Positions 20,357-21,852 of a stretch of 24,501 nucleotides of DNA are shown here, one piece after another. Source of the DNA: a virus (taxonomy: Duplodnaviria > Heunggongvirae > Uroviricota > Caudoviricetes); the IMG/VR virus record IMGVR_UViG_2700989161_000006; one strand, written 5' to 3'. The translations under genes and the position numbers were made by a program. Under the pieces are notes generated by a model. That model had not been told where the DNA came from and ran no database searches. It worked only from the letters and a program-made list of their open reading frames with translations. The first letter of the stretch is position 1; every line of letters begins with the position of its first letter.

Positions 20357-20455
20357 ATGGCAGAGATTATTCCCATGACTGAAGAACAGAAATTCCAGTT
20401 AGAGATTTACAAACTGGTCATGAACCAGAACGCAGCCGCAGAAGAAGCATTTCAG
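20357..20455 (+). pseudogene. 5' fragment of a small phage ORF interrupted by IS911
   Basis: ATG 20357 after ACGGAG; MAEIIPMTEEQKFQLEIYKLVMNQNAAAEEAFQ; the stop codon TGA is the first three bases of the IS911 terminal repeat. Confidence 0.5.
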
Positions 20456-20485
20456 TGAAGTGGTCAACAAAAACTGGCCACCGAG

Positions 20486-21304
20486 TTAGAGTTTTTTCCA
20501 GTATCGATTTTCCGATTCGTTTGGTGGTAACCCACCATTATATTCGTGCGGTCTTAGTGCGCTGTAATATCCAACGATATAGTCCGTTATTGCGTGAGCT
20601 GCATCGCTGAAGCTTACATAGCCCGTCGCCGGCACCCATTCGTTCTTCAGACTCCTGAAGAAGCGCTCCATTGGGCTGTTATCCCAGCAGTTTCCACGCC
20701 GACTCATACTCTGCCTGATCCGGTATCTCCACAGTAACTGCCGGAACTGCCTGCTCGTATAATGACTGCCTTGATCGCTGTGGAACATCACCCCGACGGG
20801 CTTACCACGGGTTTCCCATGCCATTTCCAGTGCTTTCATGGTAAGCCTGCTGTCCGGCGAGAACGACATGGCCCAGCCCACTGGTTTTCTTGCGAACAGG
20901 TCGAGAACAACGGCGAGGTACGCCCAGCGCTTACCTGTCCAGATATAGGTCACATCACCGCACCACACCTGATTTGGCTCGGTCACGGCGAACTGCCGTT
21001 CAAGGTAGTTAGGGATAGCAACATGTTCATGACCACCACGTTTATACCGGTAAGTCGGCTGCTGACAGCTGACCAGCCCCAGCTCTTTCATGAGTCTGCC
21101 AGCAAGCCAGCGCCCCATCTGGTAGCCTCTCTGGGTTGCCATTGTGGCGATGCTTCTTGCTCCGGCAGAGCCGTGGCTGATGCCATGCAGTTCAAGTACC
21201 TGGCTGCGTAATACAGCCCGTCTGCCGTCTGGCTTTTCAGGACGGTTTTTCCAGTATTTGTAGCTGCTGCGATGGACCCCGAACACATGGCAGAGAGTGG
21301 CCAC
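20486..21304 (-). CDS. insO: IS911 transposase OrfB (DDE integrase domain; made as OrfAB by -1 frameshift)
   Basis: 272-aa frame carrying a DDE/RNase-H-like catalytic region (...WCGDVTYIW..., ...[10 protein letters not shown]..., ...DNSPMERFF...). Confidence 0.8.
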
Positions 21305-21330
21305 AGGATAACGCGCCCTGAGTTTCCCGA

Positions 21331-21633
21331 TTATCGAGAACTGTTCAGGGAGTCTGACATCAAGAGCGCGGTAGCCTTTTTTAATATTTCATTTTCCATT
21401 TCAATACGTTGTAGCTTTTTCCTGAGCTCACGGATTTCAATTTGTTCCGGGGTAATGGGGGAGGCTTTTGGTGTTTTTCCCTGCCGCTCATCACGTAATT
21501 GTTTCACCCATCGCGTCATTGTGGAAAGGCCGACATCCATAGCGCTGGCTGCATCTGCCACGGTGTAATTCTGGTCAACGACCAGTTGAGCGGATTCGCG
21601 TTTAAACTCTGCGCTGAAATTTCTTTTTTTCAT
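21331..21633 (-). CDS. insN: IS911 OrfA (HTH/leucine-zipper transposase subunit)
   Basis: ATG at 21633 gives [53 protein letters not shown]..., matching my memory of IS911 OrfA; slippery heptamer A-AAA-AAG near the 3' end (reverse complement of 21376-21382). Confidence 0.8.
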
Positions 21634-21708
21634 TATGGCACCTGTGTTGTTCTGAGGTGAGCATATCACCTCTGTTCAGGTGGCCAAATTCAGTAAACCA
21701 CTTCACAG

Positions 21709-21852
21709 TTCATTGGCACTGACGAGCTGAAGCTTGAGCTATTCAAAATTCACTTCCAGTCAGGTGGCGCTAATTCAGATATCACGACCCGAACTATCGA
21801 AGCGGTGCGTAAATCGAAGGAAGCGTTAGACCTGTTTACTACCGGAGCATGA
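21709..21852 (+). pseudogene. 3' fragment of the IS911-interrupted small ORF
   Basis: In frame with the 5' fragment once IS911 and one CAG copy are removed: ...FIGTDELKLELFKIHFQSGGANSDITTRTIEAVRKSKEALDLFTTGA, stop at 21850-21852. Confidence 0.5.

Follow-up and report, generated by a model that had tools for sequence, protein, structure and literature searches.

A complete ISEc52 copy within the orf80 homologue of a P22-like prophage at tRNA-Thr

The orf80 homologue of a P22-like prophage is divided in two by a complete insertion sequence in the stretch of DNA analysed here (IMG/VR record IMGVR_UViG_2700989161_000006; 24,501 nucleotides, hereafter the window). We think it very likely that ISEc52 transposed into this gene at codon 33/34, within a prophage integrated at thrW, and duplicated the trinucleotide CAG as it did so. 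The 5′ fragment, codons 1–33 of a gene for a DUF2560 protein, lies at 20357–20455 on the plus strand; the element occupies 20456–21705, its transposase on the minus strand and antisense to the phage late operon; and the 3′ fragment, codons 34–80 with the stop codon, follows at 21709–21852 on the plus strand, now without a start codon. The two copies of the target-site duplication stand immediately outside the element, at 20453–20455 on the left and 21706–21708 on the right.

The window opens with the final 67 bp of an IS1, followed by proB and proA, which are 99.1% identical to those of E. coli K-12 derivatives. Downstream of proA, a tRNA-Thr(cgt) gene (2727–2802) adjoins an integrase ORF (2817–3977); the prophage is integrated at this tRNA gene (thrW), beside proBA, in a chromosome of E. 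coli/Shigella type. Early and late genes of lambdoid type take up the remainder of the window, which includes a Q-type antiterminator gene (17081–17599; Phage_antitermQ on the identical gene of the GCA_900486015.1 locus) and lysis genes (18061–19278), and it continues to P22-type gp3, gp2 and portal, ending in the portal gene. The first intact gene past the element is a homologue of P22 orf59c (59 aa; 21854–22033, plus strand), which holds the same position as in P22 and has a GGAG 8 nt upstream of its GTG. It is followed, on the same strand, by genes for a gp3-type small terminase subunit (162 aa; 22057–22545; Pfam GP3_package on the identical gene of the GCA_900486015.1 locus) and a gp2-type large terminase subunit (499 aa; 22523–24022). 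That near-identical locus carries GP3_package, Terminase_6N/6C and P22_portal domains, and the flanks of the element are 94–95% identical to P22. With gp3, gp2, a portal and an integrase next to tRNA-Thr past proA, the prophage is of P22-like (Lederbergvirus) type, an assignment that covers terminase, portal and integrase, the tail and immunity regions lying outside the window.

A first-pass annotation of this DNA had described an intact IS911 of 1250 bp with imperfect terminal repeats, full-length orfA and orfB, an A-AAA-AAG frameshift site and flanking CAG trinucleotides, and every one of these structural details was borne out. Direct reading and computation agree that the insert spans T20456 to A21705, exactly 1250 bp, with the TG...CA termini that the IS3 family requires. 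Its plus-strand ends are TGAAGTGGT... on the left and ...ACCACTTCA on the right, both inverted copies beginning TGAAGTGGT, and the element as such has the ends TGAAGTGG...CCACTTCA. The right inverted repeat (IRR; 20456–20491, minus strand) reads TGAAGTGGTCAACAAAAACTGGCCACCGAGTTAGAG inward and the left inverted repeat (IRL; 21670–21705, minus strand) reads TGAAGTGGTTTACTGAATTTGGCCACCTGAACAGAG; the two are identical in their first 9 bases and match at 25 of 36 terminal positions.

Between these ends, orfA (21331–21633, minus strand) encodes 100 aa with an HTH_Tnp_1 DNA-binding domain (Pfam PF01527, residues 1–74, E = 1.4e-14) and a coiled-coil region. The orfB frame (20486–21385, minus strand; 299 aa) runs from an ATT at 21385 to a stop at 20486, contains a DDE catalytic domain (Pfam rve, PF00665, residues 218–316, E = 1.6e-31), and is predicted to be expressed mainly within a 382-aa OrfAB fusion. 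This fusion would result from a −1 shift on the heptamer A-AAA-AAG (21376–21382, minus strand; IS position 324), a predicted programmed frameshift site followed by a predicted branched stem-loop (minimum free energy −28.1 kcal/mol over the 95 nt 3′ of the heptamer). A branched structure after the heptamer is the type of stimulator described for IS911; an Rfam scan returned three tRNAs only, with no frameshift-element family matched. The predicted OrfAB covers positions 1–368 of the 369 in the NCBIfam model for IS3-family transposases (NF033516; 380.6 bits, cut-off 160), has the Pfam domains HTH_Tnp_1, rve and rve_3, and keeps the catalytic residues D227, D287 and E323 in place, with 36 positions from D287 to E323. 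In its transposase domains, its overlapping ORFs with a slippery site, its TG...CA ends and its 3-bp target duplication, the element has the make-up of the IS3 family, and it falls in the IS911 group.

The name IS911 fared less well than the structural description. By ISfinder convention, isoforms of one element share at least 95% nucleotide identity. Among the matches listed from 5,426 complete E. coli genomes, six copies are 100% identical to the element over all 1250 bp; these lie on E. coli chromosomes and plasmids and are labelled by NCBI PGAP 'IS3-like element ISEc52 family transposase', whereas copies that PGAP names IS911 appear at only about 94% identity. Matches of at least 99% occur in 942 E. 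coli records from the same genome set, at up to 25 places per genome. A copy annotated as IS911 in BL21(DE3) agrees with the element at 1176 of 1250 positions (94.1%), and the IS911 annotated in phage Sf6 by Casjens and colleagues is 94.9% identical, both values falling below 95%.

IS911 serves as the model for copy-out/paste-in transposition through a circle and for programmed −1 frameshifting, and the likeness to it is extensive: the two share a length of 1250 bp, 36-bp inverted repeats starting TGAAGTGG, a 100-aa OrfA, a 299-aa OrfB and a 382-aa OrfAB, A-AAA-AAG with a branched downstream structure, and a 3-bp target duplication, and the IRR agrees with that of IS911 in Sf6 at every base. 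One could argue from these equalities, and from an identity to the Sf6 copy that is barely under 95%, that the element is IS911 proper and that its 5–6% divergence is variation within IS911. We hold this to be very improbable. The divergence also reaches the ends and the protein: IRL positions 9–11 read TTT in the element and CAC in IS911, and OrfAB shares 367 identical residues over the element's 382 aa with the Sf6 protein (389-column alignment). The labels separate cleanly, with PGAP ISEc52 copies at 100% and PGAP IS911 copies at 94%, and a 2026 preprint reports that an ISfinder BLAST of an insertion in E. coli Nissle returns ISEc52 as a distinct entry (bioRxiv 10.64898/2026.07.28.741313). 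Set against ISEc52, no difference is detectable in ends, ORFs or 3-bp duplication, and only the insertion site is lineage-specific. We accordingly read the first-pass claim of an intact IS911 as correct for an intact IS911-group element and incorrect for the species: judged by sequence identity and the 95% rule, the element is best regarded as a sister of IS911 within the IS911 group that bears the name ISEc52, a name resting on PGAP labels and two IS911-annotated copies rather than on ISfinder reference entries.

We then compared the interrupted locus with its empty counterparts. As it stands, the ORF at 20357–20458 encodes 33 aa, and the three opening bases of the element provide its TGA stop, in agreement with the earlier suggestion that the insertion supplies a premature stop to a phage ORF of about 80 aa. 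Upstream of the 3′ fragment, a TAA within the element (21694–21696) stops the frame. When the element and one CAG are excised in silico, 20357–20455 and 21709–21852 join into a continuous 243-nt ORF of 80 aa, as had been proposed, and the restored protein matches the entire Pfam DUF2560 profile (PF10834; 1–72 of 72, 147.7 bits against a cut-off of 25, E = 1.1e-43).

Whether related prophages lacking the element carry a contiguous ORF with a single CAG had been set beforehand as the test on which the proposal could fail, and they do. The joined flanks, used as a query, found matches in 202 phage records and 2,563 E. coli genomes, with single alignments crossing the joint. The intact gene of E. 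coli AHB29, which harbours a related, mosaic prophage at the corresponding chromosomal location (proB, proA, tRNA-Thr, integrase), is identical to the restored ORF at 241 of 243 nt and encodes an identical protein; its junction reads GCATTTCAG|TTCATTGGC, with one CAG. Alignment of the window to the AHB29 prophage omits exactly 20457–21705, and the CAG, plus a T that matches by chance, is all that the two flank alignments have in common. The bases at the empty site are CAG in E. coli AHB29 and F374 and CAA in P22, each present singly. Since the 1250 bp are 100% identical to insertion sequence copies elsewhere and empty sites with a single CAG exist, the insert is no chance pattern. For annotation, 20357–20455 and 21709–21852 are to be entered as one interrupted DUF2560/orf80 pseudogene, and the element as ISEc52 instead of IS911.

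A single residue of 80 separates the restored protein from P22 Orf80 (K69 versus R69). P22 has the same gene order, orf80, orf59c and gene 3, but in the window orf80 is split and only 33 codons are translatable. In both P22 and AHB29 the DUF2560 gene opens the packaging module and precedes orf59c and gene 3; in E. coli HS it precedes a terminase of a different type. The family is small, with 93 database relatives, nearly all from Enterobacteriaceae. Orf80 has no matching NCBIfam model, and the literature on DUF2560 is uninformative as to function. An AlphaFold model built from a 24-sequence alignment contains four helices (mean pLDDT 75), and no PDB entry reached an E below 4 in a Foldseek search with it.

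We also asked how widely this particular insertion is distributed. A look-up of the exact 33-aa product identified the same insertion in two NCBI draft assemblies: GCA_000566585.1, in which the insertion locus is 100% identical over 6559 nt, and GCA_900486015.1, which has 4 mismatches in 10145 nt, none of them in or near the element. A 2.4-kb query spanning the junctions was covered to at least 80% by 0 of 5,426 complete E. coli genomes, from which the insertion is absent, and a 38-nt exact pattern across the left junction found no match in genome contigs, viral contigs or metagenome contigs. Matches in AHB22 and PK6 were considered as further instances and rejected, as these are copies of ISEc52 that occupy different positions in related prophages. 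The look-up also gave seven contigs of other prophages that end 0–2 nt past codon 33, with the empty-site bases after that codon or none, and one further contig in which a 27-nt internal deletion creates a TAG at codon 34. These do not make codon 33 an insertion hot spot, an idea we rejected because an exact-product look-up returns only alleles terminating there. Because the insertion is found only in near-identical contexts and is absent from the complete genomes and the junction scans, it looks like one recent event in one lineage, and it can serve as a lineage marker common to GCA_900486015.1 and GCA_000566585.1 and absent from the 5,426 complete E. coli genomes.

In a different history, the element would be a dead, immobile relic, and homologous recombination with another prophage would have brought in the interrupted allele. 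Two points speak for such an origin: lambdoid prophages are strongly mosaic, and the flanks of orf80 are conserved enough for recombination. Against it, the insertion turned up only in the near-identical contexts of the two draft assemblies, and neither the 5,426 complete E. coli genomes nor the three exact left-junction scans contain it; a relic, for its part, is hard to square with a copy whose reading frames, DDE triad, terminal repeats and frameshift signal are all intact and that shows zero differences from other copies. We give this history very little credence and retain direct transposition of ISEc52 into orf80.

The route of that transposition can be sketched from IS911, in which a −1 frameshift on A-AAA-AAG, an excised circle with a junction promoter and a 3-bp staggered integration are the known steps. 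By analogy, OrfAB transposase would be made by −1 frameshifting on A-AAA-AAG; this enzyme would release the element in circular form, with the two ends abutting to create a strong junction promoter; and the circle would integrate by a 3-bp staggered cut. Sister copies also lie between 3-bp duplications, CTC in SEN22 and AAC in Sf6. With both ends, the ORFs and the frameshift signal undamaged and with no divergence from other copies, the copy in the window is plausibly transposition-competent and still mobile. ISEc52 has been followed elsewhere in evolving populations of E. coli Nissle, where it truncates gnd and where a variant without it was tracked as well; the authors suggest that the gnd insertion arose during early propagation (bioRxiv 10.64898/2026.07.28.741313).

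We next considered what the insertion means for the phage. Orf80 is shortened to 33 residues, and the last 47 codons lack an in-frame start. The first-pass annotation had raised possible polar effects on the downstream packaging genes, which our analysis makes doubtful. IS insertions are classically polar, and a strongly polar insertion would leave terminase, portal and downstream late genes unexpressed and the prophage cryptic and locked in. The element does sit, in antisense, between the lysis genes and gene 3 of a single late operon, and a scan of 19500–22600 found no promoter-like site on the plus strand, so that no outward promoter is predicted to re-initiate transcription beyond it. The only promoter-like site of that scan, considered as a candidate for a hybrid or outward promoter at the ends of the element, was rejected: it is on the minus strand at 22406–22377, outside the element and with no obvious relation to it. 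Terminator-like sites in the same interval numbered 6 against an expected 3.3 ± 1.9, no excess.

Against silencing stands the antiterminator. Q-modified polymerase reads through terminators, as is established for lambdoid phages, and with the Q-type gene at 17081–17599 the late operon would be read by Q-antiterminated RNA polymerase. Both orf59c and gene 3 retain their own ribosome-binding sites. Moreover, SEN22 carries the same insertion sequence with 2 mismatches and in the same orientation; there too it lies in the late operon ahead of the same packaging genes, its end 433 bp upstream of an intact orf80, and the SEN22 DNA came from phage grown up from single plaques. P22 in which orf25–orf80 has been replaced by a KmR cassette is likewise viable, and it both lyses and lysogenises (PMC11016777). 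Sf6 bears on the question from two sides: it grows with an intact IS911 in ninG, yet loss of IS911 speeds its life cycle (PMC5630979), which indicates that such insertions carry a cost and can be counted in favour of polarity. Weighing these points, we judge strong polarity unlikely; the terminase genes are probably not silenced by the insertion.

We regard orf80 as an accessory gene, dispensable in P22. Because of this, and because the late operon would be antiterminated by Q, the burden of the insertion on the phage is most likely small: 1.25 kb of space in the head and perhaps a degree of interference with transcription. Terminal redundancy in P22 is about 1.6 kb (PMC11016777), to be set beside the 1.25 kb that the element adds; head space may be a real cost of the insertion in this prophage, which extends beyond the window. 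Independently of the insertion, the prophage may be defective elsewhere.

In kind, the event is already known: it is an ordinary IS3-family insertion into a dispensable prophage gene, and its importance beyond annotation is small. Sf6 (IS911) and SEN22 (ISEc52) likewise have an IS911-group element in a P22-like genome, antisense and flanked by a 3-bp duplication, and both are viable phages that tolerate it. They differ from the window in the place of insertion, which in Sf6 is ninG in the early right operon and in SEN22 lies between Rz and an intact orf80, whereas here orf80 itself is interrupted. The window thereby adds one more natural insertion sequence inside a P22-like late operon, usable to test how far an antiterminated operon tolerates polarity.

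Lastly, the transposase was antisense to the phage transcript in all six insertions examined (the window, SEN22, Sf6, SfII, E. coli PK6 and E. coli AHB22). This might suggest that IS911-group elements persist in temperate phages only with the transposase antisense to the antiterminated transcript, a generalisation that, drawn from six cases with their kinship disregarded, we consider rather doubtful. If true, such a bias would point to selection against activation of the transposase by read-through, or against polarity in the sense orientation.

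Across the phage and prophage copies of IS911/ISEc52, the transposase lies antisense to the surrounding phage operon in all six cases, a small sample in which copies rather than independent insertions were counted. These comprise the ISEc52 element in the window (20456-21705) and the copies carried by SEN22, Sf6, SfII and the prophages of E. coli PK6 and AHB22 (L008 2501-3750, L009 1501-2749, L021 2501-3750, L005 4606-5854 and L004 2503-3752).

The copy in E. coli BL21(DE3), annotated as IS911 (L007; NZ_CP053602.1 4418680-4419927), has one A fewer at the frameshift site, reading AAAAAG as opposed to AAAAAAG, so its orfA and orfB would be fused in frame without frameshifting. 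Despite the AAAAAG motif, its PGAP label remains 'programmed frameshift'. E. coli K-12 substr. AG100 has an incomplete copy (NZ_LN832404.1 4505481-4506271) that is 97.4% identical to the window element and is named ISEc52 by PGAP; because of this naming, the labels 'IS911' and 'ISEc52' may be used loosely in the field.

We also considered contigs from unrelated prophages (L013-L020) returned by exact look-up of the 33-aa truncated orf80 product. Seven of these contigs stop 0-2 nt past orf80 codon 33, and any bases beyond that codon match the empty site. Such ends near codon 33 are largely a selection effect of the look-up, which returns that truncation length only. In L018, a 27-nt deletion creates a TAG at orf80 codon 34.

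Just upstream of orf80, the window carries a GIY-YIG / T5orf172 nuclease-like gene (161 aa; 19623-20108) in the slot that is occupied by rha in P22 and many of its relatives, a mosaic replacement. Further upstream, between the Q-like antiterminator and holin genes, lie tRNA-Asn(gtt) (17663-17737) and tRNA-Thr(tgt) (17743-17818), a pair that this prophage shares with its relatives in E. coli AHB29 and PK6. Between the window and L011, the contig from assembly GCA_900486015.1 with the same insertion, three of the four differences cluster in a 7-nt stretch inside the large terminase gene (window 23902-23908); apart from the four, the two sequences are identical. This cluster could represent a small patch of recombination or of mis-assembly.

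At the start of the window, an IS1 copy is represented by its terminal 67 bp (1-67; ...GTAAGTTGGAGTCATTACC), which directly adjoin the phoE-proB intergenic region. Since the IS1 end abuts this region, phoE may have been disrupted or displaced in the genome of origin. A chromosome rich in IS elements would be consistent with Shigella or with an E. coli that carries many of them.
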